Part shown: in pieces, positions 1 through 19,731 of the stretch
Position numbering within the stretch: the stretch's first letter is position 1
Layout: the number at the start of each line of letters is the position of its first letter
Assembly (NCBI GenBank): GCA_002709955.1
Contig: PAQY01000018.1
Location: 13,508-77,507 of the forward strand
Reading direction: 5' to 3'
Source of the DNA: Rhodospirillaceae bacterium
Lineage (GTDB): Bacteria; Pseudomonadota; Alphaproteobacteria; UBA8366; Aestuariispiraceae
Length of the DNA: 64,000 bases
Translations under genes and position numbers: made by a program
Notes under the pieces: model-generated
Databases searched by the model: none
What the model was told of the DNA's origin: nothing
What the model saw: the letters and a program-made list of their open reading frames with translations, nothing else

Positions 1-96
1 TCCAATCAATTTGGCGAGCTTTCGATCTGATCGCACAGAAAGCGCATCTTTAGCGTAATCCAAATAGCTGTCGATGGTTGGCAATGTCGATTTCAT
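1..96 (-). CDS. Phage repressor-like HTH protein, N-terminal 32 aa only (runs off window)
   Basis: Manual translation MKSTLPTIDSYLDYAKDALSVRSDRKLAKLIG; GGAGA RBS upstream; divergent from early genes; resembles Cro/CI-type HTH N-termini; absent from ORF track. Confidence 0.7.
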   Translation of the reverse strand, partial: MKSTLPTIDSYLDYAKDALSVRSDRKLAKLIG

Positions 97-120
97 GGCG
101 GTCTCCTTTGTTAAAAAAAC

Positions 121-139
121 TGTATCGCGTATCGAAACG
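121..139. promoter_or_regulatory. Putative operator O1 (imperfect palindrome)
   Basis: TGTATCG-CGTAT-CGAAACG; right arm 5/7 match to O2. Confidence 0.55.
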
Positions 140-166
140 CGCTTGCAATTGAAAACGAACCATGTA

Positions 167-185
167 TGTATCGTGTCTCGATACA
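167..185. promoter_or_regulatory. Putative operator O2 (perfect 7-5-7 palindrome)
   Basis: TGTATCG-TGTCT-CGATACA between divergent repressor and early genes. Confidence 0.65.
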
Positions 186-241
186 CCAAATACAGTGGTT
201 TCCACGATATGAGGTGTTTTGGCGTCGTTGGGGAAACAAGG

Positions 242-443
242 TTCTGTGTCGCGACAGAAAGAAGACGCTCCCCAGCGTCCGGGTTTTCGGTCATCCCAGC
301 CAGAAAAAACCGTCAAGTTACCCCTCTGAGTTCCTGGACAGTCTCACGGGGGGGATGGTGGCGGAAGCCATACGGCGGGGGAGTGAGGCACAAAACTTTC
401 TCCCCCGTCACCATACGCAAACTGTCCCCTGCGCGGAGCGCGC
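242..443 (+). other. Hairpin-dense non-coding segment (structured leader RNA or replication origin candidate)
   Basis: Stems 242-247/254-259, 264-269/274-279, 336-342/421-427, 355-360/409-414, 376-383/400-407; TGGC-GGAA-GCCA at 359-370. Confidence 0.45.
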
Positions 444-466
444 ATAACCGTTGGGGAGTAAAGAAA

Positions 467-853
467 ATGGCAATTGGTACGATTACACCTACTGAGAAAG
501 ACGGCGTTTTTCGGTTTCGGATCACAACGTTCCATCTCAATCTCTCGGGAATTCTTAAAGTCAATCCGGCCTATGTCGATGATGGGCGCATGAAAATGTC
601 CCATATCGGTCAAGCGCGCGGGTCGCATGGTGAAATTGTCGATGTGTTGGGCGCTGCTCGGTATCGCATTGAAAAGTCTGATGCGGAGTTTCGCGGGGAA
701 AACCTATTCAATCTTTGGTTCACTGATCCTGATTTTCCGACTTGGCGAATGGCTGCCTATCCCCGTCGCGATGATGCGGGCGTTATCTATTGGGATATTC
801 AGCGATCCCAGGACAAGCAGGAAGCAGGGCAGGCCGGGGGGGCGGAACAGTGA
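467..853 (+). CDS. DUF736-like protein, putative ssDNA-binding (128 aa)
   Basis: MAIGTIT start and LWFTDPDFP / YWDIQRS segments resemble DUF736; GGGGAG RBS at 453-458. Confidence 0.55.
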   Translation: MAIGTITPTEKDGVFRFRITTFHLNLSGILKVNPAYVDDGRMKMSHIGQARGSHGEIVDVLGAARYRIEKSDAEFRGENLFNLWFTDPDFPTWRMAAYPRRDDAGVIYWDIQRSQDKQEAGQAGGAEQ

Positions 854-1086
854 AAAACGATGCGGAAATTTTAAGGTTTCGCGTTCAGAAAGAGGGTGGA
901 GGGGTCAGGGTCTCGCCAGTCGGGGCCGATGGAGAATTTAATCCGACCAGCAACGACAACGCGCTTGCGGTTGCGGCTTGGGGCATCGGAGTTTTTCTGG
1001 ATGTCGGCCTTACGCCCGATGAAATCAAGGCAGTAGCCCAAGCAATGCAGCTCGACCAATTGGGCACAGACAATGCAACTGCCTAA
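850..1086 (+). CDS. Phage hypothetical protein (78 aa)
   Basis: GTG start overlapping upstream stop (GTGA). Confidence 0.6.
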   Translation: MKNDAEILRFRVQKEGGGVRVSPVGADGEFNPTSNDNALAVAAWGIGVFLDVGLTPDEIKAVAQAMQLDQLGTDNATA

Positions 1087-1471
1087 AGGACTGCTCACCG
1101 ACATTCCCTACGATCCTGTTGAATACGGGCGGCTGCTGTCCCGGTTCGGATCGTTTGAGGTTATCGACGTGCAGAAATTGGAAAAGATTGGGGAGGATCG
1201 TTTCGGCGATCCTCTCTATCGCTTGTGCCGATGGTACGAAATCCAATCCTCTTGCGGTGATCTGATCCTTGCCGGTGGATTTCCGACGCTGGGATTTGCC
1301 CAGACCGTCGCCAATTATTTCGCACAGTTGCGGGAAATGTATCTCACGCCATCGGCGCTAGAGTTCTGCGAAAGCTTCTGGAAAGAGCAAGAGGAAACCG
1401 GGGACTATTGGGGGCTGACCAAACGTGACGCGCCCGATTGGAACGATGCTTATTATGGGGTGCTGTCATGA
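1073..1471 (+). CDS. Phage hypothetical protein (132 aa)
   Basis: ORF overlapping both neighbours in the early operon. Confidence 0.65.
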   Translation: MQLPKGLLTDIPYDPVEYGRLLSRFGSFEVIDVQKLEKIGEDRFGDPLYRLCRWYEIQSSCGDLILAGGFPTLGFAQTVANYFAQLREMYLTPSALEFCESFWKEQEETGDYWGLTKRDAPDWNDAYYGVLS

Positions 1472-1776
1472 CAACGCCCAAGAGGGGGAAAACCTGCGGA
1501 ACCTGTTATTATTTTGATCCGCAATGCTGGTCTGGATTAGGCGATTGCCATAGAGCGCCGCCCCTCCCGTTTATGCAAATGCTGGATTATTTGACCAAGG
1601 CTTCACTAAAGACAATTGACCCTCAGGAAGCGGCTGCAATCAAAGGGGAAGAATGGGCCCTTTTTTGGCCTGAAGTCAATTTGCACCATGACGGATGCGG
1701 CGAGTACAAGCGGGCCGGTTTGTTCGATTATGGATGGAATTGGGCGCAAGGTTGGCGGTGGCGGTGGAAAAAATGA
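1468..1776 (+). CDS. Cys-motif (metal-binding) phage protein (102 aa)
   Basis: ATGA coupling; CGTC...GDCHRAPP...GCGEY motif. Confidence 0.65.
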   Translation: MTTPKRGKTCGTCYYFDPQCWSGLGDCHRAPPLPFMQMLDYLTKASLKTIDPQEAAAIKGEEWALFWPEVNLHHDGCGEYKRAGLFDYGWNWAQGWRWRWKK

Positions 1777-2963
1777 GCGCCGAAACCCTTGTCAATACGC
1801 AAGCAGAGTTTCCCCCCCCCTCCGAAGGCACAAGGGACCGCCGATATCGTCTCAGGGCGGCTGCGGCAAAGGTAGGATATGGCCGGGTGCGCCGATGCGG
1901 GCGCAAGCGCGTCTCTCTGACAGTCCAGATACGCAATCATGACGGCGTTTGCTCTGCCTCAGGCTTTGAGACGTGCGGGTCTATCTGGTCTTGTCCAGTG
2001 TGTGCCGCAAAAATCTCTGAGGTTCGGCGGCAAGAGGTCCGAAAAGCGATGCTGGGATGCTCTGAGGCGGGCGGGGCGGTCTACATGATGGCGTTTACCG
2101 CCCCCCATTACCGTGGGCAGGGCCTCAGGGGGCTTAAGGACCGAATGGGCCTTGCATGGCGCAAGATGCTATCAGGCGCGCCATGGGGGCGTCTCAGGGG
2201 CGATATGGGCCTTATTGGCTACATCAAGGGGCTAGAAGTCACTCACGGGATTAAAAACGGCTGGCATCCGCATTTTCATATCCTGTTTTTCCTGGAAAAG
2301 CCGCTGACAGAGCAGGAACGGGAAAAATTTGAATGGAAGCTGTTTAATCGATGGGATCAGATTGTCTGTGAGGCTGGGTCTGATCCGTGTAATTTCGCTG
2401 TTTTTAAATTGGAACAGGCGCACACGCCGGAAGCCGCTGGCGATTATGTCGCTAAATTCGGTTCTGATTATGAAATCACTCACTTGCATACCAAGGCGGC
2501 AAAGGGCGGCGGGCGATCACCTTGGGCGCTTCTGGACCTGTCGGCAAAGGGATATCAAGAAGCGGGTAAACGGTTTGGGGAATATTCGCGGGCGATGTTT
2601 GGCGCACGTCAATTGACGTGGAGCAAGGGCCTAAAGGATCTGTACCGCGTCTCTGATCCCTCGGATGAGGACGTAGCGGAAACCAATCACGGTGACGTGG
2701 TTATCACCCTTGACGGCAAGGAAGTGGATGAAGTCCAGCGGGCCGGATACCGCTGTTTTCTTGCCATGCTACGGGCTGCGGAAACTGGCGGGGCGGTGGC
2801 AGTGCGGGCTTTCCTGCGCGATTTCGGGCTTGGGCGACGGTCTGATGATCTTAGGGCTTTTCGGTCGCAATACTACGGAGAAACAGACAATGACGACAAA
2901 GGCGAATTCGCTGGTCGTGCGCCTGCATCCAAGCGGGACATGGCGGTACATGGGGTTCACTGA
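1773..2963 (+). CDS. rep: HUH rolling-circle replication initiator (Rep_1-like, 396 aa)
   Basis: CGSIWSCPVC, motif I MAFTAPH, motif II GWHPHFHIL, motif III DYVAK with catalytic Tyr; ATGA coupling. Confidence 0.92.
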   Translation: MSAETLVNTQAEFPPPSEGTRDRRYRLRAAAAKVGYGRVRRCGRKRVSLTVQIRNHDGVCSASGFETCGSIWSCPVCAAKISEVRRQEVRKAMLGCSEAGGAVYMMAFTAPHYRGQGLRGLKDRMGLAWRKMLSGAPWGRLRGDMGLIGYIKGLEVTHGIKNGWHPHFHILFFLEKPLTEQEREKFEWKLFNRWDQIVCEAGSDPCNFAVFKLEQAHTPEAAGDYVAKFGSDYEITHLHTKAAKGGGRSPWALLDLSAKGYQEAGKRFGEYSRAMFGARQLTWSKGLKDLYRVSDPSDEDVAETNHGDVVITLDGKEVDEVQRAGYRCFLAMLRAAETGGAVAVRAFLRDFGLGRRSDDLRAFRSQYYGETDNDDKGEFAGRAPASKRDMAVHGVH

Positions 2964-3087
2964 GCAAGGCGCTATTGCTTGGTATCAGGACGCGAAACAG
3001 GCTGAGGCGTATTTCGCTGATGATGCTCACAAACTCGCAAATCTGTACAGCAAGCGCGGCTGGGATATGCACGTAAGGACGGTGTGA
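2890..3087 (+). CDS. Small hypothetical protein overlapping the rep 3' end (65 aa)
   Basis: GGAG RBS at 2877-2880; stop 1 nt before the next ATG. Confidence 0.55.
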   Translation: MTTKANSLVVRLHPSGTWRYMGFTEQGAIAWYQDAKQAEAYFADDAHKLANLYSKRGWDMHVRTV

Positions 3088-3088
3088 T

Positions 3089-3442
3089 ATGGCTAAACAG
3101 GACGTGATCGGATATGCGCCGTGTCCCGATCCAAACTGCAAAAACATGGCGGAAATTCGGGTTCGCAGAACGAAAAGCGGGCCGGGGAATATTTATATCA
3201 TTCATGACTATTCCCCGCCTCAGCGCGGCTGTGGATCGAGCCAAAATTTGACCAATTGGGACCAGCATACCGCGCCTGATTGGCCGGGGTTTGTGCCACT
3301 GGCTAAGAAACCAGAGCCTAAGGCTTCAATTCCTAAGGAAACAAAGCCTCAGGAACCGGAATCTAATGCAGCCAATCCTAAGGAAACGAAACCGAAGGTG
3401 AGCCTTGCGCGGCGCATCTGGGACGGGGGCGATGATGACTGA
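3089..3442 (+). CDS. Zn-ribbon putative transcription regulator (PM2 P14-like position) with PKxxx repeat tail
   Basis: CPDPNC...H...GCG motif; located between rep and ATPase, as PM2 gene XIV. Confidence 0.6.
   Translation: MAKQDVIGYAPCPDPNCKNMAEIRVRRTKSGPGNIYIIHDYSPPQRGCGSSQNLTNWDQHTAPDWPGFVPLAKKPEPKASIPKETKPQEPESNAANPKETKPKVSLARRIWDGGDDD
3302..3398. repeat. 15-bp-period array of CCTNAGG-like heptamers
   Basis: GCTAAGA 3302, CCTAAGG 3317, CCTAAGG 3332, CCTCAGG 3347, TCTAATG 3362, CCTAAGG 3377, CCGAAGG 3392. Confidence 0.8.
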
Positions 3443-3950
3443 GGAAAAAGACCCTTACATCGGGGACCTGGACGATGTGACCTGGGATGCTGCCAAAGAT
3501 GATTTCAGCTATGGGCAGCAAGAAATCCCTAAAGAGGTTCGGGACGAATTCCCGGAAATCGGCGCGCAACAAGGCGGCATGGAACGGGAGGAATTCGACC
3601 GGATTGTCGGGACAGATCGATTTTCGGCTCACGTCGCCAAGCTGCTGAATTGGAACGCCAAAATTCAGGGCGTACCGGAGGCCCGCATAGATGCAAGCGA
3701 TCAAGGTTTTAATGCTGCTATGGAGGTCGTTTATCGCCGCCTCTTGGATGGGCCGGGGCGCTATTTGCTGCCTTACCTTACTAACCGCGATCTTATCGAT
3801 CTATGGATGGTTTCAACGTGGGCTGTCCCGTATGCGATCCGGTTTCGCAAGGCGATTGCGGCGCGGAAAAAGGCGGCGCGCGCACAGGCGATGGCACAAC
3901 ACAAGGCGAAAGAGCCTGAGCAAAAAGGGGCTGATGAAAATGTCAACTGA
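3432..3950 (+). CDS. Phage hypothetical protein preceding the ATPase (172 aa)
   Basis: Overlaps both neighbours; acidic N-terminus, hydrophobic segment and basic tail. Confidence 0.7.
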   Translation: MMTEEKDPYIGDLDDVTWDAAKDDFSYGQQEIPKEVRDEFPEIGAQQGGMEREEFDRIVGTDRFSAHVAKLLNWNAKIQGVPEARIDASDQGFNAAMEVVYRRLLDGPGRYLLPYLTNRDLIDLWMVSTWAVPYAIRFRKAIAARKKAARAQAMAQHKAKEPEQKGADENVN

Positions 3951-4587
3951 TGGCAAGCGGATTTTTATTGCAGGATCGGCGGGGTCCGGCAAATCAGTGT
4001 TAGCGCGGTCGCTGGTCGCGGATCGGCCAAGGGTTATAATCTTTGACCCAAAAAATGAAGTGCATTGGCAGGACGGCGCGGAACGCATTCACCACATGGC
4101 ACAGTTTAAGACCTTCCTGGGAGATATGCGCGATGGCGCTTTCCGGGTCTATTATCAGCCTGAAACAGGGCGCGAAATCGAGCGACTGTCGAGCCTGTCA
4201 ACCCTGCTGATGAAGTTCCAGGCGGGGCACAATGCAGGCAAGATTGAACGCCCGATCACATTGATTGTGGAGGAAATGGCGGCGGCTGCGCCTTTGTCCA
4301 TCCCGCCAAAACATACGGGCTTCCCACAACTGATCCGAATGGGCCGGTCCTATGGGATATCAGTGGTCGGGATTGCGCAACGTCCAGCCGAAGTGTCGCC
4401 AACATTCCGGGGTAATCTGAATGCGGCTTTTGCATTCCGGTTCTCATTCAAGAATGACCGTCAAGCCATCGCCTATGCGATGCAAGATGAAGCCGTTGAA
4501 CAGGCTGTCCAGGACTTGCCGGAATTTCATTATCTCGCCTTTGACGGTCGCAGTTGGTCAAAATGCGATCCGGTTCCGCTGACATAA
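3940..4587 (+). CDS. FtsK/HerA-family genome packaging ATPase (PM2 P9-like, 215 aa)
   Basis: Walker A GSAGSGKS, Walker B TLIVEE, Arg-finger and sensor GRSYGISVVGIAQRP. Confidence 0.92.
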   Translation: MSTDGKRIFIAGSAGSGKSVLARSLVADRPRVIIFDPKNEVHWQDGAERIHHMAQFKTFLGDMRDGAFRVYYQPETGREIERLSSLSTLLMKFQAGHNAGKIERPITLIVEEMAAAAPLSIPPKHTGFPQLIRMGRSYGISVVGIAQRPAEVSPTFRGNLNAAFAFRFSFKNDRQAIAYAMQDEAVEQAVQDLPEFHYLAFDGRSWSKCDPVPLT

Positions 4588-4597
4588 ACCGCCCGAT

Positions 4598-4621
4598 TTC
4601 CTAAGGCTTTGTTTCCTTAGG
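4598..4621. promoter_or_regulatory. CCTAAGG-N8-CCTTAGG palindromic site upstream of the capsid operon
   Basis: Reverse complement is 23/24 identical to 3332-3355. Confidence 0.6.
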
Positions 4622-4721
4622 GTCGATAGACGATTTAAGCAAAGTGCCCTTGTCCTGATCCCATACAGGCGGGGGCATTTTGCTGCCCGTCACGTTTCTA
4701 ATCTCAAACGTGGGTAGGGCG

Positions 4722-4868
4722 ATGAAATTCACTCTTAAAAATCTGGGCGTGATTGCCCTGGGCGTAGCTCTCGGCATGATTGGCCTGAATTACGTTACAA
4801 AATTGGTGCCGGGGGCCGAAGAGTTGGCCTCGGGTGAAAGTTCCTTCTGGGCACGGCTGTTCGGCTAA
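4722..4868 (+). CDS. Small membrane protein preceding MCP (PM2 P7-like position, 48 aa)
   Basis: Single hydrophobic helix LGVIALGVALGMIGLNYV. Confidence 0.7.
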   Translation: MKFTLKNLGVIALGVALGMIGLNYVTKLVPGAEELASGESSFWARLFG

Positions 4869-4881
4869 GGGGAGGCTTTCA

Positions 4882-5751
4882 ATGCCAAAATTTCTGAAAC
4901 GCATGCAGTCTTTCAGTAACGTCGCGCCGTCGTCCATCGCCGTCGCCACGTTGCCGGTCACGAAAAAGTATCACAAGGTCTTGCTGCGGCTGCGGCATGA
5001 TACCAGCGGTTCGGGCGGGGCGGCTGGAACGCTGATGACCCAAGCGAACATGCTGACGCACATTGCCGAAATCCGGTTGCGCGTCACATCGCTATCGTTT
5101 GGCACTCAAACGCTGTGGGAATTGTCGGGCGCTGATTTCATCAAGTGCATCAACAATTTCTACAATATCGACAGTGCGGCGGGCGTTCTGCCTTTGATCT
5201 TTGGTTGTCCGTATTGGAACAACCCGGCGATTGAAGACTATTTCAGCCTGGGCACGCTGGACCTGACCAATGTGGAAATCGAAGTCAAATTCGATAGCAC
5301 CGTTGTCGGGCCGGAATTGGTCGGGTTCGCCTATGAATACAGCGGGCCGAATGAGCCGCTGGGCCGGTTCCTCAAGTACCAGTACACGAACCTGTCAAAC
5401 ACAGCGACGGGCTGGATTGAAGAACCTGACTTGCCTGTTGTCGGTAACGGCATCGGCTTGAAGGCGCTGCACCTATCGACCAATGCAATCGACGAAGTTG
5501 AATTGCGGTCCAATGGTGAAGTGGTTCACGAAGACCTGGCCGAATTCCGGCCTGTCCTTCTGGACCTGAATGCTTTCCGCACCGATGGCCGGACGGAAGA
5601 CGCCAACTATACCCACCTTGACCTTGCCGGGAACAACGCGGCGGACGTGTTCAACATGTCCAATGTTCGGGATTTCCGGGCCAAGTTCAATCGGACGGGA
5701 ACCGGCGCTTTCCGTTGCATCACGGAAACCGTGATCGGCAACGCGGCGTAA
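4882..5751 (+). CDS. Double jelly-roll major capsid protein (PM2 P2-like, 289 aa)
   Basis: FSLGTLDLTNVEIEVKFD, DLPVVGNGIGLKALHL and VRDFRAKF match recalled PM2 P2 segments (FALGTVGLTTCEIKFD, DLPRPVGYRIAAIHI, IQDLRLKI); GGGAGG RBS. Confidence 0.9.
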   Translation: MPKFLKRMQSFSNVAPSSIAVATLPVTKKYHKVLLRLRHDTSGSGGAAGTLMTQANMLTHIAEIRLRVTSLSFGTQTLWELSGADFIKCINNFYNIDSAAGVLPLIFGCPYWNNPAIEDYFSLGTLDLTNVEIEVKFDSTVVGPELVGFAYEYSGPNEPLGRFLKYQYTNLSNTATGWIEEPDLPVVGNGIGLKALHLSTNAIDEVELRSNGEVVHEDLAEFRPVLLDLNAFRTDGRTEDANYTHLDLAGNNAADVFNMSNVRDFRAKFNRTGTGAFRCITETVIGNAA

Positions 5752-5766
5752 CTGCGCATGATTCGA

Positions 5767-5794
5767 AGGGTGGCGGGCTACGGCCTGCCACCCT
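5767..5794 (+). other. 12-bp stem with C(UACG)G tetraloop after MCP, no U-tract
   Basis: AGGGTGGCGGGC-TACG-GCCTGCCACCCT. Confidence 0.7.
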
Positions 5795-5809
5795 ATGAGG
5801 AGAAAGATT

Positions 5810-6181
5810 ATGCCTGCTTACAATCCAGGTGGCATTGAAGGGACTTCAACGTCTCAGTCTGCTTTGAACACGGGCACGGGCGGCATTGGTAGCCTGTTTT
5901 CAGACGGGGCCGATTGGCTTTCCAATCAGGTTGACGACATCCTGAACAGTGCCGGGAAAATCTGGACCACGATTTCAACGTACAAACTCTCTGAGGCGCA
6001 ATTGCAGGCGCAACGCGACAAGCTGCGGATGAACCAGGAAGCGTATCAGCCTGTCTCGGCGTCTTCGGCTATCCCGAATATGGGGTCGTTCTTTGGCGGT
6101 CAAAGCCAGATCGGTACGTACCTGATGATCGGCGGGGCAATCTTGCTGGCAATTTGGGGCATCCCAAAGCTTCTGAAATAG
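5810..6181 (+). CDS. Virion membrane protein (PM2 P3-like, 123 aa)
   Basis: First gene after MCP; amphipathic N-half and C-terminal TM helix; GAGGAG RBS. Confidence 0.7.
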   Translation: MPAYNPGGIEGTSTSQSALNTGTGGIGSLFSDGADWLSNQVDDILNSAGKIWTTISTYKLSEAQLQAQRDKLRMNQEAYQPVSASSAIPNMGSFFGGQSQIGTYLMIGGAILLAIWGIPKLLK

Positions 6182-6190
6182 GGGGCGGGC

Positions 6191-6442
6191 ATGGCGGCTC
6201 AAGCTGGCATTAACGTCGATGTACGGGACGCCCTTAAGGGCGGTCCTGCCTATTCCGGGGCTGATGGCTATCAGGGGTCTTACCTGGGGCAAAATTACCA
6301 GGGCGGCTTTGGTGGCTACTACGCGCCGTTTTCCCCTGGGGGATCGGGCGCGTTTGCCAGTGCATCGGGGGAAAGTTCGATCTGGAAATGGTTGATTTTT
6401 GGCGGTGTGGCTTTGTTCGCCTATCGCGTTTGGAAGGGGTGA
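6191..6442 (+). CDS. Gly-rich virion membrane protein (PM2 P8-like, tentative)
   Basis: Gly/Tyr-rich body and C-terminal TM ending WKG. Confidence 0.6.
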   Translation: MAAQAGINVDVRDALKGGPAYSGADGYQGSYLGQNYQGGFGGYYAPFSPGGSGAFASASGESSIWKWLIFGGVALFAYRVWKG

Positions 6443-6445
6443 TCC

Positions 6446-6868
6446 ATGCAACACGATATCCGTTTTTTCCCTGCTGAGTGGTCGCCACAAGTCCAGGCCG
6501 TCATGAATGCCGCAAGCGGCCTGAATGCGGCTTACACGGTCGAAGACTTGCGCCGTGAAGTGTCGCGCGGGGCGTCAAAGCTTATGCAGGTTGTCCAGGT
6601 CATGCAGGACGGTTCGCCGATGCTGTTGGGCTATCTGTGCTTCTGGAAAGAGCCGCAAGGCCAGGGCCAGGAATTGGTGATCCATGCCGGGGCCGCGCTG
6701 ACCGATGAGCGAACGACCTTTGCCAAGGTTGCGCCGCATATCAAACGGCTTGCACTGGAAAACGGGTGCCAGTCGATCCGGGCGCATACGGCATCGTCAA
6801 AGCGGTTGGCGATGTTCAAGGCGAATGGCTATCAGATGGTTGAATTTGTTGTCCGGCAATGGGTGTAG
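6446..6868 (+). CDS. GNAT-fold acyltransferase-like protein
   Basis: LALENGCQSIRAHT...MFKANGY resembles the GNAT C-terminal motif. Confidence 0.6.
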   Translation: MQHDIRFFPAEWSPQVQAVMNAASGLNAAYTVEDLRREVSRGASKLMQVVQVMQDGSPMLLGYLCFWKEPQGQGQELVIHAGAALTDERTTFAKVAPHIKRLALENGCQSIRAHTASSKRLAMFKANGYQMVEFVVRQWV

Positions 6869-6871
6869 GTC

Positions 6872-7273
6872 ATGGGCGGCAGTTCATCCAGTTCATCCAG
6901 CCAGACCCAGACGACGGACAACAGTCAGAAAACGTATATCGATGATACGCGGGCGGCTGTTTATGACCAGGGCGTAGCGATCACGGGGACAACGGGCGCG
7001 ATCACCTATTCCGATTTGTCGCCTGAGGTCGCAGCCGAATTGCGTAAGGCGGGGGAGGCGGGTTTTGACCTGTCGGCGGATGTTCTGAAACTCGGTTTCG
7101 ATTTCGCCAATCAGGCGAATAAGTCCGTCCAGGAATTGGCGGGCACGGTGTCGGCGGTCGCGAAAGAGGCGACGGAGGAAGACGCCAAGCAATTCCTGAC
7201 CGATTTTGTCAAGTGGGGGCTGTTAGCCTCGGTGTCGGTTGCGGCGCTGTTTTTCTGGTCTAAGAAAGGCTGA
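6872..7273 (+). CDS. Virion membrane protein with MGGSSSS N-terminus (PM2 P10-like, tentative)
   Basis: Ser/Thr-rich N-terminus, helical middle, C-terminal TM ending KKG. Confidence 0.65.
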   Translation: MGGSSSSSSSQTQTTDNSQKTYIDDTRAAVYDQGVAITGTTGAITYSDLSPEVAAELRKAGEAGFDLSADVLKLGFDFANQANKSVQELAGTVSAVAKEATEEDAKQFLTDFVKWGLLASVSVAALFFWSKKG

Positions 7274-7277
7274 TCGA

Positions 7278-7970
7278 ATGCCAAACACGGTGATCTATGA
7301 GGTTCGGGAATATGTCCTGGACGCGAACGGCGAAACGAAAGAATACATCCCGGCAACGCGCTTCCGGGTACTGAGCGCGACGGGGCCTCTTGCCATAGCG
7401 TTTGGTCCTACCGATGGTTTCCAGCGCATTGAAAGCGGCCTTGGTATCAGCACGATTGAGCCATTTAAGATGGTTCGCATTAAGGATATTTCCGGGGCGC
7501 AAAACACGATCCTTGTTGCCTACGCGGGGTCTGATGTAGCCGATAGCCGTTTAACCATCACGGGCGGTCAATTGGGTGTGCTTGATCCGGTGGGCGGCGA
7601 AAGCTTTTCCGACATCGTGACTGCGCTTCAGGCGGTAACGGCGGCAATGCGTGAGGATCAGCAATTACGTGCTCCGCTGACCACGTTTGACGGCGCAAGC
7701 TATTACCAGGCGGTCAATACCACGACAACAGTTATTTCCGCCGCCGCAAATACAGGCGGTTTTATAATCCGATGGGCCGGGGTGCAGGTTCAAAGCGGCA
7801 ATGGTGTGGCGGCGGTGCGGCTTGATGACGATGAGGTCTTGTACGCGCTGTCAAACAACACGGACATGATTGCTAATTGCGGGAATATCTATGTTCCCGC
7901 TGGGGTGAAGGTCGATCTTTATTCGGCGGCTGCGGCCAATAAGGCGTGGCTGTGGGGGGAGGCGCTGTAA
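7278..7970 (+). CDS. Penton/spike receptor-binding protein (PM2 P1-like, 230 aa)
   Basis: N-terminal FRVLSATGPLAIAF...ESGLGI...FKMVRI resembles the recalled PM2 P1 jelly-roll domain; beta-rich C-terminal domain. Confidence 0.75.
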   Translation: MPNTVIYEVREYVLDANGETKEYIPATRFRVLSATGPLAIAFGPTDGFQRIESGLGISTIEPFKMVRIKDISGAQNTILVAYAGSDVADSRLTITGGQLGVLDPVGGESFSDIVTALQAVTAAMREDQQLRAPLTTFDGASYYQAVNTTTTVISAAANTGGFIIRWAGVQVQSGNGVAAVRLDDDEVLYALSNNTDMIANCGNIYVPAGVKVDLYSAAAANKAWLWGEAL

Positions 7971-8164
7971 TGAGCAATCCAACGGCAAATAATTCCTTTG
8001 AGGGAATGTCCGATGCTGAAAAAGCTTCGCTGGCCGTCGATCCGGTAACGAGCCTTAAAATCGTCGCAAGCGCAAAGCGTGGCGGTGTCGAATGGTTGTC
8101 TTTTGAAGACGGAACGGAGGCGGTACGCGACCAGGACGGCAACGCGGCTGTATGGCCTGAATAA
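7970..8164 (+). CDS. Small acidic protein coupled to spike (64 aa)
   Basis: TAATG overlaps at both ends. Confidence 0.6.
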   Translation: MSNPTANNSFEGMSDAEKASLAVDPVTSLKIVASAKRGGVEWLSFEDGTEAVRDQDGNAAVWPE

Positions 8165-8628
8165 TGCGCGCGATCCTGCTGGTCGCGCTGTCATTGATCC
8201 TATGGGGGTACAATAAAATGAAGTTGAACGAGGCTCAGTTGACAATGGCGCGCACCATGTATGGCGAAGCGCGAGGCGAGGGCGCGACGGGCATGCAGGC
8301 GGTCGGCAACGTCATCATGAACCGCGCACTGTTGGGCGGATGGTGGGGCAATAGCATCGTGTCCGTTGCTCTGAAACCGTGGCAATTTTCGGCCTGGAAC
8401 CAGAATGATCCGAACCGCGATGTTATCGCCAATCTTATGCCGGGCGACAATCAGACCTTTGATCTTGCTTATGAGATTGCGGGCAAGCTGATCGACGGGG
8501 ACTTGCCCGATATAACGGGCGGCGCAACGCACTACTACGCCGATACGATTTCGGAACCGGGATGGGCGCGCGGGGCCAATCAGACGGCCTATATCGGCCA
8601 TCATAAATTCTTTAATGAGGTCGCGTAA
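8164..8628 (+). CDS. SleB/Hydrolase_2 cell-wall hydrolase with N-terminal hydrophobic segment
   Basis: TMYGEARGE catalytic motif, VGNVIMNR, QFSAWN, GGATHYY, IGHHKF. Confidence 0.9.
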   Translation: MRAILLVALSLILWGYNKMKLNEAQLTMARTMYGEARGEGATGMQAVGNVIMNRALLGGWWGNSIVSVALKPWQFSAWNQNDPNRDVIANLMPGDNQTFDLAYEIAGKLIDGDLPDITGGATHYYADTISEPGWARGANQTAYIGHHKFFNEVA

Positions 8629-8807
8629 TGCAGTTCGTTCCTATCGTCATCTGGTCGCTGGCCGGGTCCATCGCGACACTTTGGGCAACCCGTCAAGAGG
8701 GGGAAGCCGAAACGGTAACAGAGCGGATCACAACCAATCTAGGCGCGGTCTTCATTGCAGTGGCCGGGGCTGTTGCGACTGCTTGGGTTTGGAAAAAGGT
8801 GCGGTAA
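8628..8807 (+). CDS. Two-TM small membrane protein (59 aa)
   Basis: Manual translation MQFVPIVIWSLAGSIATLW...LGAVFIAVAGAVATAWVWKKVR; TAATG coupling on both sides; below ORF-track cutoff. Confidence 0.7.
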   Translation: MQFVPIVIWSLAGSIATLWATRQEGEAETVTERITTNLGAVFIAVAGAVATAWVWKKVR

Positions 8808-8956
8808 TGCAAGCGCTGTTTGACATCATTAGGGAGGCGCTAGGCGTCGGATCGGATGCGGCGATCATCGGGTTCGCGTTGATCCTGTGGCGGATCGAGC
8901 GGCGCTTGTACCGGGTTGAATTGCACCTGTGGCCGAAAGAGGGAGGGCGGTTATGA
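8807..8956 (+). CDS. Small membrane protein (49 aa)
   Basis: TAATG coupling; one TM followed by a basic stretch. Confidence 0.65.
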   Translation: MQALFDIIREALGVGSDAAIIGFALILWRIERRLYRVELHLWPKEGGRL

Positions 8957-9372
8957 TCTCGGAAGTCGTCAAGGGCATTGCGGGGCCGCTGTTCGGGTTG
9001 GTCGATAGTCTTTTCACGTCCGATGAAGAACGGGCCGCTGCAAAATTGAAATTGTTGGAAATGGAACAGCGCGGCGAATTGGAAACCATGCGGGTCCAGA
9101 TGAGCGCCATTCTGGCAGAAGCGAACAGCAAAGACCCCTGGACAAGTCGCGCGCGTCCGGCCTTTTTGTATGTGATTTACATCATCATCTTGGCAGCTTT
9201 GCCTATGGGCATTCTGAGCGCGTTTCGGCCTGATGTTGCGACGGAAATCACCCTTGGCGTAAACGCATGGCTATCTGCTATCCCGGATGCGCTCTGGACA
9301 CTGTTTGGGGCCGGTTATCTCGGATATGCCGGGGCGCGCACGGTCGATAAGCTGAAAGGCGGTCAAAAATGA
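8953..9372 (+). CDS. 3TM holin family protein (139 aa)
   Basis: FTSDEERAAAKL, WTSRARPAFLY and GYAGARTVDK motifs of the GTA/phage 3TM holin family. Confidence 0.85.
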   Translation: MISEVVKGIAGPLFGLVDSLFTSDEERAAAKLKLLEMEQRGELETMRVQMSAILAEANSKDPWTSRARPAFLYVIYIIILAALPMGILSAFRPDVATEITLGVNAWLSAIPDALWTLFGAGYLGYAGARTVDKLKGGQK

Positions 9373-9557
9373 AGCTGCGCAAAATGCTGGTAAGGGCGGC
9401 AATCCTGGGCGGTGCATCGGCCTTGGCGGCGTGGGTGTCCAGGGCGGTTGTGCCAGGGGAGGCTGACCCGTTTGCACCGACTGGGGAAGCCAAAACGCAA
9501 GTGATCCGCGCGGGATTGGCCGGCGCGGTTTTTGGCCTGGTTTCAGGCATCATTTAG
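9369..9557 (+). CDS. Small two-helix membrane protein (62 aa)
   Basis: ATGA coupling to holin; hydrophobic ends. Confidence 0.65.
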   Translation: MKLRKMLVRAAILGGASALAAWVSRAVVPGEADPFAPTGEAKTQVIRAGLAGAVFGLVSGII

Positions 9558-9569
9558 GGAGGGCCGGTC

Positions 9570-9680
9570 ATGGCACGTAAATCAGTATCGAAAAAGGCGG
9601 CAACCAAGGGCAAGGGACGCCTGAAAAAGGGCTATCGCTACGCGAAAGGCGGGCGGATCGTGAAGGCGAAAAAGCGGTGA
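9570..9680 (+). CDS. Highly basic 36-aa peptide (putative DNA-condensing protein)
   Basis: MARKSVSKKAATKGKGRLKKGYRYAKGGRIVKAKKR; GGGAGG RBS; 16 K/R and no D/E. Confidence 0.7.
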   Translation: MARKSVSKKAATKGKGRLKKGYRYAKGGRIVKAKKR

Positions 9681-9682
9681 CG

Positions 9683-10090
9683 CTATCGGCGGCTGTTTGG
9701 CGTCTTGTTCGGGGCTGGCTTTAGGCGATCCGCCAGGGTGGATTTCGGAATTCTGAAATCATTTTCAATTGTTCTCAGGGACGCGCCTTTGCGGCGTTTG
9801 ATTTCTGCACCTTGGAGGCGGGCCGAAAGGTCCGCCTTTTCTCTGCGCTGGATCTCTAACTGCACCGGGGTCACGGGCAGGCAAAATTGCGCGGCGGCGC
9901 TGGAAATAGCTGCATCGGACGCAACGTCATTTTTTATCATCATGCGATCGGCAAGGTCTGCGGCGCGACGGATTACAGAGAGGCGCGACGATTGCGCCTC
10001 TCTTTCGGAAATATCCGTTGCCTCTCTGATAAGTAATTTTTCAATCTCGCCAAAGATACCGGCAAGTCTATAGAGCGTGTCCGAATTCAT
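9683..10090 (-). CDS. Protein with C-terminal helix-turn-helix
   Basis: GASLRTIENDFRIPKSTLADRL HTH pattern; GGGGA RBS. Confidence 0.7.
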   Translation of the reverse strand: MNSDTLYRLAGIFGEIEKLLIREATDISEREAQSSRLSVIRRAADLADRMMIKNDVASDAAISSAAAQFCLPVTPVQLEIQRREKADLSARLQGAEIKRRKGASLRTIENDFRIPKSTLADRLKPAPNKTPNSRR

Positions 10091-10175
10091 CGCTTTCCCC
10101 GACTATTGTTATGCCATATTCAAGCGGGGGAATGCGTGAATGACAAGGGAAACCGCCTTACGAGCCATTTTCTTA

Positions 10176-10203
10176 ATTTTCCATAATATACATTATCACG
10201 ATT
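10176..10203 (-). other. dif: dif-like XerC/XerD recombination site (prophage right junction)
   Basis: Minus strand AATCGTGATAA-TGTATA-TTATGGAAAAT versus E. coli dif GGTGCGCATAA-TGTATA-TTATGTTAAAT: spacer identical, XerD arm 9/11. Confidence 0.85.
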
Positions 10204-19685: not shown

Positions 19686-19731
19686 GGGAACATATACCCG
19701 CTAAAGAGAACATTTGTTCTAATTTTACCCC

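Follow-up and report, generated by a model that had tools for sequence, protein, structure and literature searches.

The first ten kilobases of a 64,000-nucleotide (nt) stretch of contig PAQY01000018.1 (assembly GCA_002709955.1, Rhodospirillaceae bacterium), which we call the window, very probably belong to a 10.6-kb temperate virus of the Vinavirales that occupies the chromosomal dif of a Hwanghaeella-like member of the Rhodospirillales. The element takes up window positions 1-10192 and continues for 405 nt leftward, beyond the window. It is of the PM2-like kind, predicted to be a tailless icosahedral virus with an internal membrane and a double jelly-roll (DJR) capsid, and our verdict is that it is a genuine, complete-looking prophage of ~10.6 kb in a marine alphaproteobacterial host. 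Its most informative feature is that it has no integrase and lies in the chromosomal dif. DJR prophages of the dif type, and integrative mobile elements exploiting Xer recombination (IMEXs) in general, have already been described; the element adds a member to them, probably at the family level, and is not a new kind of system.

Capsid, gene series and borders

The capsid and the packaging ATPase identify the element. The product of 4882-5751 (plus strand) is a P2-type DJR major capsid protein that matches both Pfam models of the family (P2_N 35.2 bits, P2_C 43.2 bits; cut-off 25 each), and an exhaustive HMMER search with it returned 245 representative clusters at E<=1e-3, the nearest 50% identical. 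AlphaFold2, run on an alignment with 70 relatives, gave a model with a mean predicted local distance difference test score (pLDDT) of 96.2 and a predicted template-modelling score (pTM) of 0.92. A comparison of this product with PM2 P2 by HHpred or Foldseek had been proposed beforehand, with failure to model as a double jelly roll named among the refuting outcomes; in Foldseek, PM2 P2 proved to be the best match in the PDB (2vvf_A; E 6.6e-21, template-modelling (TM) score 0.80/0.86, root-mean-square deviation 2.4 Å, 20% identity), followed by the double jelly-roll capsids of PBCV-1, STIV and PRD1/PR772. As modelled, the protein folds into a PM2-type double jelly roll. Upstream on the same strand lies a P9-type packaging ATPase of the FtsK/HerA superfamily (3934-4587; Walker A GSAGSGKS), with AAA_10/HerA-type, DUF87 and FtsK-like matches and a match to PHROG 2666 (E 2e-25). 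By phmmer it is homologous to the P9 proteins of NO16 (E 9e-13, 40 bits), Jorvik (1e-10, 33 bits) and PM2 (4e-10, 31 bits). The Pfam P2 models, the capsid fold and the ATPase homology together bear out an earlier, sequence-only reading of this DNA, which had proposed a PM2-like double jelly-roll prophage in an alphaproteobacterium.

These two genes belong to one dense rightward gene series that fills window positions 1-10192, with one short leftward gene at either end. Neighbouring genes overlap by 1 or 4 nt at their stops and starts (853/850, 1471/1468, 7970, 8164, 8628, 8807, 8956/8953 and 9372/9369), gene lengths agree with those of three sibling prophages, and there is no sign of a frameshift. 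Rep, ATPase, capsid, small transmembrane proteins, hydrolase and holin are all on the plus strand, and no open reading frame (ORF) of the element has a Pfam or PHROG match to tail, portal, terminase or integrase proteins. In this the uninterrupted, unbroken series without tail or terminase genes that had been read from the letters holds up.

The borders come from a longer contig. The same element lies on a 35-kb metagenome contig of the Joint Genome Institute (JGI), here L003, with 1 mismatch to the window over 10,853 nt (L003 coordinate minus 9534 gives the window coordinate). On L003 a perfect 20-nt direct repeat, TTAATTTTCCATAATATACA, occurs at 9129-9148 and 19707-19726, 10,578 bp apart. 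The right copy is the attR core at window 10173-10192; because the left copy, attL, is at L003 9129-9148, the prophage starts 405 nt before the window, whose own start cuts the element within a minus-strand repressor-like gene with a helix-turn-helix (HTH). Host genes flank the repeats on both sides: an MMPL transporter and a 464-aa protein on the left, and an EamA transporter, a glutamine synthetase-like gene and MazG on the right. The size fits the Vinavirales range (~9-15 kb, with no tail, portal or terminase). The limits first given for the element, 1-10186, were accordingly right at one end, since 10186 falls inside the attR core, and wrong at the other, where attL lies 405 nt before position 1. 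The description of the prophage as apparently intact fared in the same way: the element looks complete on L003, and the window by itself, in which its start is cut, is insufficient to say so. A nucleotide search with the whole element against 50,697 phage records gave no match, nor did scans of IMG/VR with the capsid protein and with the attL/attP 24-mer.

Integration at the chromosomal dif site

The right-hand junction regenerates a 28-bp chromosomal dif (10176-10203), composed of a XerD arm, ATTTTCCATAA (10176-10186), a central TATACA (10187-10192) and a XerC arm, TTATCACGATT (10193-10203). Read on the reverse strand, attR is AATCGTGATAA-TGTATA-TTATGGAAAAT, which has the canonical dif architecture of Alphaproteobacteria and agrees with the sites that Carnoy and Roten list for them (PMC2731167). 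In their list, Rickettsia and Ehrlichia have an identical XerD arm, and Agrobacterium a XerC arm that resembles the one here. An exact search for 23 nt of the site, with one genome per species, found four genomes with one copy per matching contig; two of the four are complete chromosomes, in which the copy is single. In two of the four, both from other genera, the flanks are syntenic and the site is unoccupied. A Pacificispira metagenome-assembled genome (MAG) has the same 28-mer amid homologues of the same neighbouring genes. The chromosome CP051228.1 (L009), labelled 'MAG: Mesoflavibacter sp. isolate ih5', carries the alphaproteobacterial-type dif 28-mer, and the flank of the site there has 68% nucleotide identity to the Hwanghaeella-side guanylate cyclase region. 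Mesoflavibacter is a genus of the Bacteroidota, so the taxonomic label of this record may be wrong.

Two cultured congeners show the site with and without a virus. Hwanghaeella sp. 1Z406 (L010) has an empty dif, since its left host flank (92% identical) runs straight into its right one (84% identical) at the site. In Hwanghaeella sp. LZ110 (L014) a sibling prophage occupies it, between host flanks that, over the 26-30 nt shown at either side, do not differ by a letter from those around the empty site of 1Z406. Set side by side, attB, attL and attR of this pair give virus and host exactly 17 nt in common, made up of the 11-nt XerD arm and the 6-nt central region; the 2 nt beyond the arm remain with the flank to which they belong. 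On the XerC side, attP has the phage arm CTGATCCCCGA, which is identical in 4 of 4 sibling prophages. The predicted attP of the circular form reads …GCCATTTTCT-TAATTTTCCATAATATACA-CTGATCCCCG….

The circular genome would thus carry an attP built from a XerD arm, the central hexamer and a non-canonical XerC-side arm, and host XerC and XerD would recombine this attP with dif, as in an IMEX or dif-type DJR prophage. We favor this reading because no ORF between attL and attR resembles a recombinase (no match to any recombinase family in Pfam or PHROG) and because the attachment site is dif-like; on these grounds the element probably uses host XerCD.

Such a lifestyle is known from Vibrio, in which Ma and Zhang (2025) curated 258 DJR prophages (PMC12715192). 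The attP of the dif-type members is a 28-bp, a left-armed 17-bp or a right-armed 17-bp mimic of dif, and a repressor, P16/RstR, and a regulator, P15/XafT, adjoin it (PMC12715192). Like the element, these prophages and NO16 (Asemoviridae) have no integrase, target dif and regenerate dif at one junction, and the element fits the dif-type class with an attP of the 17-bp XerD-arm type. They differ from it in their gammaproteobacterial hosts, in their size (12.9 ± 1.0 kb versus 10.6 kb) and in sequence, the NO16 capsid being 23% identical.

The Vibrio cholerae IMEXs TLC-phi, CTX-phi and VGJ-phi also use host XerCD at dif and have no integrase, and are filamentous single-stranded DNA phages or satellites. 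In the attP of TLC-phi one arm, that of XerD, is degenerate and the central region is the same as in dif; a dedicated activator, XafT (DUF3653), is known. The degenerate arm of the element is instead that of XerC, and no XafT-like domain was detected in it. Rhodobacter phage Jorvik (Mestraviridae, Anticleavirus jorvik) resembles the element in its alphaproteobacterial host, its lack of an integrase and its dif-like att sites, and host XerCD use has been proposed for it (PMC10589892). Set against the dif of Rhodobacter sphaeroides (PMC2731167), the 16-bp identity of Jorvik (L001 1-16) looks like a XerC-side arm plus the central region. This is our own reading and is not in the Jorvik paper; it would place Jorvik's identity on the XerC side, whereas that of the element is on the XerD side. 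Jorvik also integrates in the RuBisCO operon and not in a true dif, unlike the element.

On the circular map, two leftward genes flank attP. One encodes the 178-aa HTH repressor-like protein (L003 9094-9630, minus strand), of which the N-terminal 32 codons lie at window 1-97 and the remainder, with attL, to the left of the window. It matches PHROG 638, 'transcriptional regulator' (E 6e-14), and weakly HTH_3 and Phage_CI_repr, and has one hydrophobic helix at residues 123-141. The 3' end of this gene crosses the attL core, where the dif core encodes ...VYYGKL, so integration changes the tail of the protein: the prophage form ends in ...GKLIIIQKGTLILY (178 aa) and the predicted circular form in ...GKLRKWLVRRFPLSFTHSPA (184 aa). 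The other gene encodes a 135-aa protein with an HTH-like C-terminus (9683-10090, minus strand) and no family or PDB match. It is 96% identical in a sibling prophage, L012, whose structural genes are only 52-91% identical. The two products would form a lysogeny module, with the 135-aa protein a candidate for a second lysogeny or Xer-helper factor. Between the repressor-like gene and the divergent rightward operon lies an intergenic stretch with no convincing ORF (98-466), presumably the regulatory switch. Scans for sigma-70 consensus promoters and for intrinsic terminators found no more sites than expected by chance or in shuffled sequence, and the CtrA box TTAA-N7-TTAA that has been proposed for Jorvik occurs nowhere in the window.

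Remaining genes and relation to known viruses

The rightward operon opens with a 128-aa protein (467-853; all genes in this and the next three paragraphs are on the plus strand) that is called in identical form on 8 contigs, has GGAG as its ribosome-binding site and lacks any Pfam or PHROG match. A suspected DUF736 domain, like that of its L012 counterpart, was not supported. Next come a 78-aa protein (850-1086), called on L003 and L004, whose start overlaps the previous stop, and a 132-aa protein with no family match (1073-1471). The Cys-rich 102-aa accessory ORF that follows (1468-1776) is present in this variant only: contigs of runs X12 and X14 join 1471 directly to 1770, leaving out 1472-1769, and the LZ110 sibling is without the ORF. 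We regard this slot just upstream of Rep as a small hypervariable or accessory insertion site.

The replication initiator is a 396-aa rolling-circle Rep of the Rep_1 family with the HUH motif HPHFH (1773-2963), matching Pfam Rep_1 (E 3.5e-12, 46.8 bits versus a cut-off of 33.2) and PHROG 11698 (E 3e-78). Its reading frame is open from 1695 and its start is uncertain. The nearest phage Reps are those of small filamentous-type phages, blackswan219-6 (36%), Pseudomonas PMBT54 and Propionibacterium B5. This affinity agrees with what has been reported before, that these viruses exchange no module more readily than the replicase, and TLC-phi, CTX-phi and VGJ-phi are themselves filamentous. The pC194-type nick motif CTTGATA has a single occurrence, within the Rep gene on the minus strand (2553-2559), and is no evidence for an origin. 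A possible but doubtful 65-aa ORF (2890-3087) has a GGAG ribosome-binding site, overlaps the 3' end of Rep and is called inconsistently by gene callers. It is followed by a 117-aa protein (3089-3442) in the position of PM2 P13/P14, rich in Cys at its N-terminus and ending in a Pro-Lys-rich repeat tail, with no family match and a 15-nt periodic repeat at 3303-3392, and by a 172-aa protein (3432-3950) that by position only corresponds to PM2 gp h and Jorvik gp6, an assembly factor (dN/dS, the ratio of nonsynonymous to synonymous substitution rates, 0.24 versus the L012 sibling).

A perfect palindrome, CCTAAGG-N8-CCTTAGG, with a 7-bp stem (4600-4621), lies where the ATPase gene and the structural operon leave a gap. 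It is unique in the window, where none is expected by chance, and shows 96% complementarity to 3332-3355; the LZ110 sibling has it conserved, and L012 lacks it. Its half-site CCTAAGGAAAC occurs three times in the window (0.4 expected by chance), always in the prophage (4600-4621, 3332-3342 and 3377-3387), two of the copies being inside the Pro-Lys repeat of the 117-aa gene. The palindrome may serve as an operator or a terminator, or may simply result from the codon repeat.

The structural operon matches the order P7-P2-P3-P8-P10-P1 in the size, order and helices of its products, the helices being those of a simple hydropathy scan; the small proteins have no detectable sequence similarity, so their assignments are positional. 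It begins with a 48-aa membrane protein (4722-4868) that has a hydrophobic helix spanning residues 4-22 and stands where PM2 has P7 and Jorvik has gp8. Downstream of the capsid gene come a 123-aa protein with a C-terminal membrane helix (5810-6181; position of PM2 P3), an 83-aa Gly-rich protein with a hydrophobic C-terminus (6191-6442; position of PM2 P8, 81% identical in L012), a 140-aa soluble protein (6446-6868) that corresponds by position only to Jorvik gp12, a 'putative N-acetyltransferase', with no family or PDB sequence match, and a 133-aa protein with a C-terminal hydrophobic anchor (6872-7273; position of P10/gp j, dN/dS 0.07). The 230-aa product of 7278-7970 is a candidate vertex or spike (receptor-binding) protein. 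The sequence-only reading had called it the spike, and its position and size do fit those of Jorvik gp14 (P1); its model, with two beta-sandwich domains and a pLDDT of 69.8, found in Foldseek only generic beta-sandwich proteins of the cupin, vicilin and cyclic-nucleotide-binding (cNMP) kinds at TM scores below 0.3, and no specific P1 match. The late genes comprise a 64-aa protein (7970-8164), a SleB-type cell-wall hydrolase, or endolysin, with an N-terminal signal or anchor (8164-8628; Pfam Hydrolase_2 E 8.4e-19, PHROG endolysin families, and the spore cortex-lytic enzyme 4f55 in the PDB at E 1.6e-5), two small membrane proteins (8628-8807, 59 aa with two helices; 8807-8956, 49 aa with one), a holin with three transmembrane helices (8953-9372; Pfam GTA_holin_3TM E 6.1e-24, 85.3 bits versus a cut-off of 24.8), and, at 9369-9680, a 62-aa membrane protein (9369-9557) and a highly basic 36-aa peptide. 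The holin family was first described for gene transfer agents (GTAs).

The cultured viruses compared were PM2, Jorvik and NO16; VruC and MfV (MW618650, Parnassusviridae) were left out. PM2, a Pseudoalteromonas phage of the Corticoviridae, is like the element in its genome of ~10 kb, capsid fold, homologous ATPase and leftward regulatory operon, and is collinear with it through Rep, small regulators, a gp h-like gene, P9 ATPase, P7, P2, P3, P8, P10, P1 and late or lysis genes. The likeness is faint in sequence, with the capsids at 24 bits by phmmer and 20% identity in structural alignment. PM2 has the 634-aa P12 where the element has a 396-aa Rep of the Rep_1 type, its lysis genes differ from the SleB-type hydrolase and three-helix holin of the element, and it is lytic whereas the element is integrated. 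Jorvik has the same order of structural genes, including a protein of ~135-140 aa between the P8-like and P10-like genes, and of the cultured viruses compared it has the capsid that matches best (41 bits; 48% of the protein aligned at 28.6% identity). Only 2 of ~25 proteins, however, are detectably similar; the ATPase module of Jorvik is on the opposite strand, and its short P1-RepL-like replicase, M15 and SLT hydrolases and 8.8-kb genome each differ from what the element has. The ATPase closest by sequence is that of NO16 (29% identity).

Five families are recognised in the Vinavirales by the ICTV, the international body for virus taxonomy (PMC12451628). The element falls outside the Corticoviridae, with two proteins similar to those of PM2 (24 and 31 bits) and a Rep unrelated to P12 by phmmer; outside the Mestraviridae, with similarity in the capsid (41 bits) and ATPase (33 bits) only and differences in ATPase strand, replicase and hydrolases; and outside the Asemoviridae, with an NO16 capsid 23% and an ATPase 29% identical and no other similar protein. 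No autolykivirus was among the capsid tblastn matches at E<=1e-3. Because the capsid and ATPase alone resemble those of cultured relatives (23-30% identity by tblastn), the element probably represents an unclassified family-level lineage, which makes plausible the earlier suggestion that it is unclassified. This lineage is perhaps nearest to the Mestraviridae. By phmmer the capsid scores 41 bits against Jorvik, 29 against NO16 and 24 against PM2, the PM2 and NO16 capsids group together among the relatives retrieved (132 bits), and the Jorvik capsid, beyond its own cluster, is matched best by the capsids of the element and its siblings. The sequence-only reading had also stressed that alphaproteobacterial isolates are rare. 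This is so for cultured isolates, of which Jorvik is one, but as an argument it is overstated: prophages with P9 and P2 have been reported in large numbers, 849 hits from 436 species that are for the most part aquatic Alpha-, Beta- and Gammaproteobacteria (PMC10589892).

Siblings, activity and rival explanations

The L012 sibling occupies the same dif in a nearly identical host, and its capsid is 64% identical. The rate of synonymous substitution (dS) between the two is 0.02 and 0.10 in the flanking host EamA and glutamine synthetase-like genes, and above 1 in most phage genes, which have dN/dS values of 0.07-0.35. The phage genes are under purifying selection, and the two prophages are old relatives in very close host strains; diverged prophages in near-identical hosts argue for independent acquisition or replacement rather than vertical decay. 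The early module of L012 (1457-4319) differs from that of the element, with an extra DUF736 gene and a 388-aa protein with a weak Rep_trans match in place of Rep_1, while its attP arms are identical and its late genes conserved. In a further variant (run X7, ~93-95% identical), the segments 364-830, 1132-1328, 2896-3054, 4795-4878 and 7696-7968 are replaced by unrelated sequence of similar length, and replaced segments are also found in the X6 variant. The swap of the 3' third of the spike-candidate gene (7696-7968) suggests an exchange of receptor-binding domains.

Sequencing runs give some view of the lineage in nature. In X2, a run labelled with an organism name whose contigs total ~4 Mb, and in X4, a marine metagenome, a 40-nt empty-site unitig at the position of window 10173-10202 (TGAATTATAA, core, TTATCACGAT) occurs at a depth of 5-6 alongside lysogen junctions. 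The same samples thus contain prophage-free cells, which could be either cured or never infected. An RNA-seq run with another organism label (X20) yielded contigs at 850-1036, 6181-6419 and 7157-7303 (98-99% identity, depth ~3) and none from the host flank; these may be low-level transcripts or DNA carry-over, and are too weak to serve as evidence of expression.

In the life cycle that we propose, induction would be followed by rolling-circle replication started by the Rep_1 protein; the small membrane proteins would stud a membrane vesicle on which the capsid assembles, packaging of the DNA would fall to the P9 ATPase, and the holin and SleB-type hydrolase would lyse the cell. Several observations weigh against a temperate virus that integrates by host XerCD. 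The XerC-side arm CTGATCCCCGA agrees with the host XerC arm at only 2 of 11 positions, which leaves the positioning of XerC on attP unexplained, and the XerC and XerD genes are absent from the 64-kb window. The cumulative GC skew of the window peaks near 25 kb, away from dif at 10.2 kb, although this signal is ambiguous over 64 kb. No circular attP junction was seen in the four of four runs examined at the junction, and prophage depth was at or below host depth in every run (9.4 versus 10.5; 6.4 versus 9.2); with no excess of phage depth, nothing indicates replication in those samples. A scan of JGI metagenomes (metagenome_contigs) also gave 0 matches to the attP junction, but this result is uninformative because the collection lacks even an integrated copy: the attL/attP 24-mer, present on the JGI contig L003, had 0 matches as well. 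The negative IMG/VR scan is likewise uninformative about attP. Neither of the two proposed lysogeny proteins is similar to PM2 P15/P16 (gp a/b/c) or to the XafT domain (DUF3653) by phmmer or Pfam, so the parallel with the P16/RstR and P15/XafT module is one of position only, as is the assignment of the spike.

The missing junction and the unremarkable coverage would be expected of a cryptic prophage, structurally complete but unable to be induced or to excise, being locked in by Xer as in CTX-type integration, and an attL with a non-canonical XerC arm could indeed make excision inefficient. We consider this unlikely. All ORFs are intact and under purifying selection, very different variants occupy the same site in near-identical hosts while other congeners are empty, which points to repeated and recent integration of the lineage, and empty-site k-mers accompany lysogen junctions in X2 and X4. 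The odd XerC-side arm could also be taken further than we take it. On a bolder view, the element would be the founder of a new family-level lineage of Vinavirales specific to Rhodospirillales, and its one-armed attP would need a new Xer helper that recruits or bypasses XerC, for which the HTH-like 135-aa protein beside attP is the candidate, in a mirror image of XafT in TLC-phi. We hold this to be a rather improbable elaboration.

The same arm, together with some ten ORFs that have no family assignment, leaves room for integration by an activity of the phage itself, the HUH Rep endonuclease or an unrecognised recombinase, with the likeness to dif reflecting only a choice of target. The details of the junctions make this very improbable. 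The shared segment is exactly the XerD arm and the 6-bp central region, the geometry expected for Xer strand exchange, and one junction regenerates a perfect dif, as in known IMEXs. L012, moreover, combines a Rep of a different family with identical attP arms, which uncouples Rep from integration. The membership of the holin in a family known first from GTAs might bring to mind a domesticated derivative that serves the host as a producer of GTA-like or bacteriocin-like particles, an idea to which we give almost no credence. The element has kept a replication initiator, a repressor and an attachment site of its own; some congeners have it, with exact borders, and others do not; it evolves much more quickly than the host genes on either side; and divergent siblings use the same site. 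All of this is what a mobile virus typically shows, and a fixed host locus does not.

The rest of the window (10323-64000) is ordinary chromosome, in which no second mobile element was seen. Its genes include EamA, a glutamine synthetase-like gene, MazG, polysaccharide deacetylase, TrpD, MoeA, ComEC, GltX and citrate synthase; LpxB/LpxD, BamA, RseP, Dxr, EF-Ts, an ATP-binding cassette (ABC) exporter, and citrate and major facilitator superfamily (MFS) transporters; and a molybdopterin dehydrogenase with CoxE and MobA-like genes, and YdbH. GC skew is uniformly positive on the coding strand of the prophage (+0.04 to +0.18); that of the host part is negative only from ~26 kb, and the cumulative-skew peak lies ~15 kb from dif.

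Tailless membrane-containing phages are abundant in aquatic bacteria, yet very few can be studied in culture, and Jorvik is the sole characterised isolate from Alphaproteobacteria. This work provides exact borders for a complete-looking relative. The cultured lysogen Hwanghaeella sp. LZ110 and its cultured empty-site congener 1Z406 form an experimental pair that could make the virus experimentally accessible. The element documents the swapping of replication-gene modules, including a Rep held in common with filamentous-type phages, and it extends the dif-type, Xer-exploiting lifestyle of DJR prophages from Vibrio and Rhodobacter to the Rhodospirillales.

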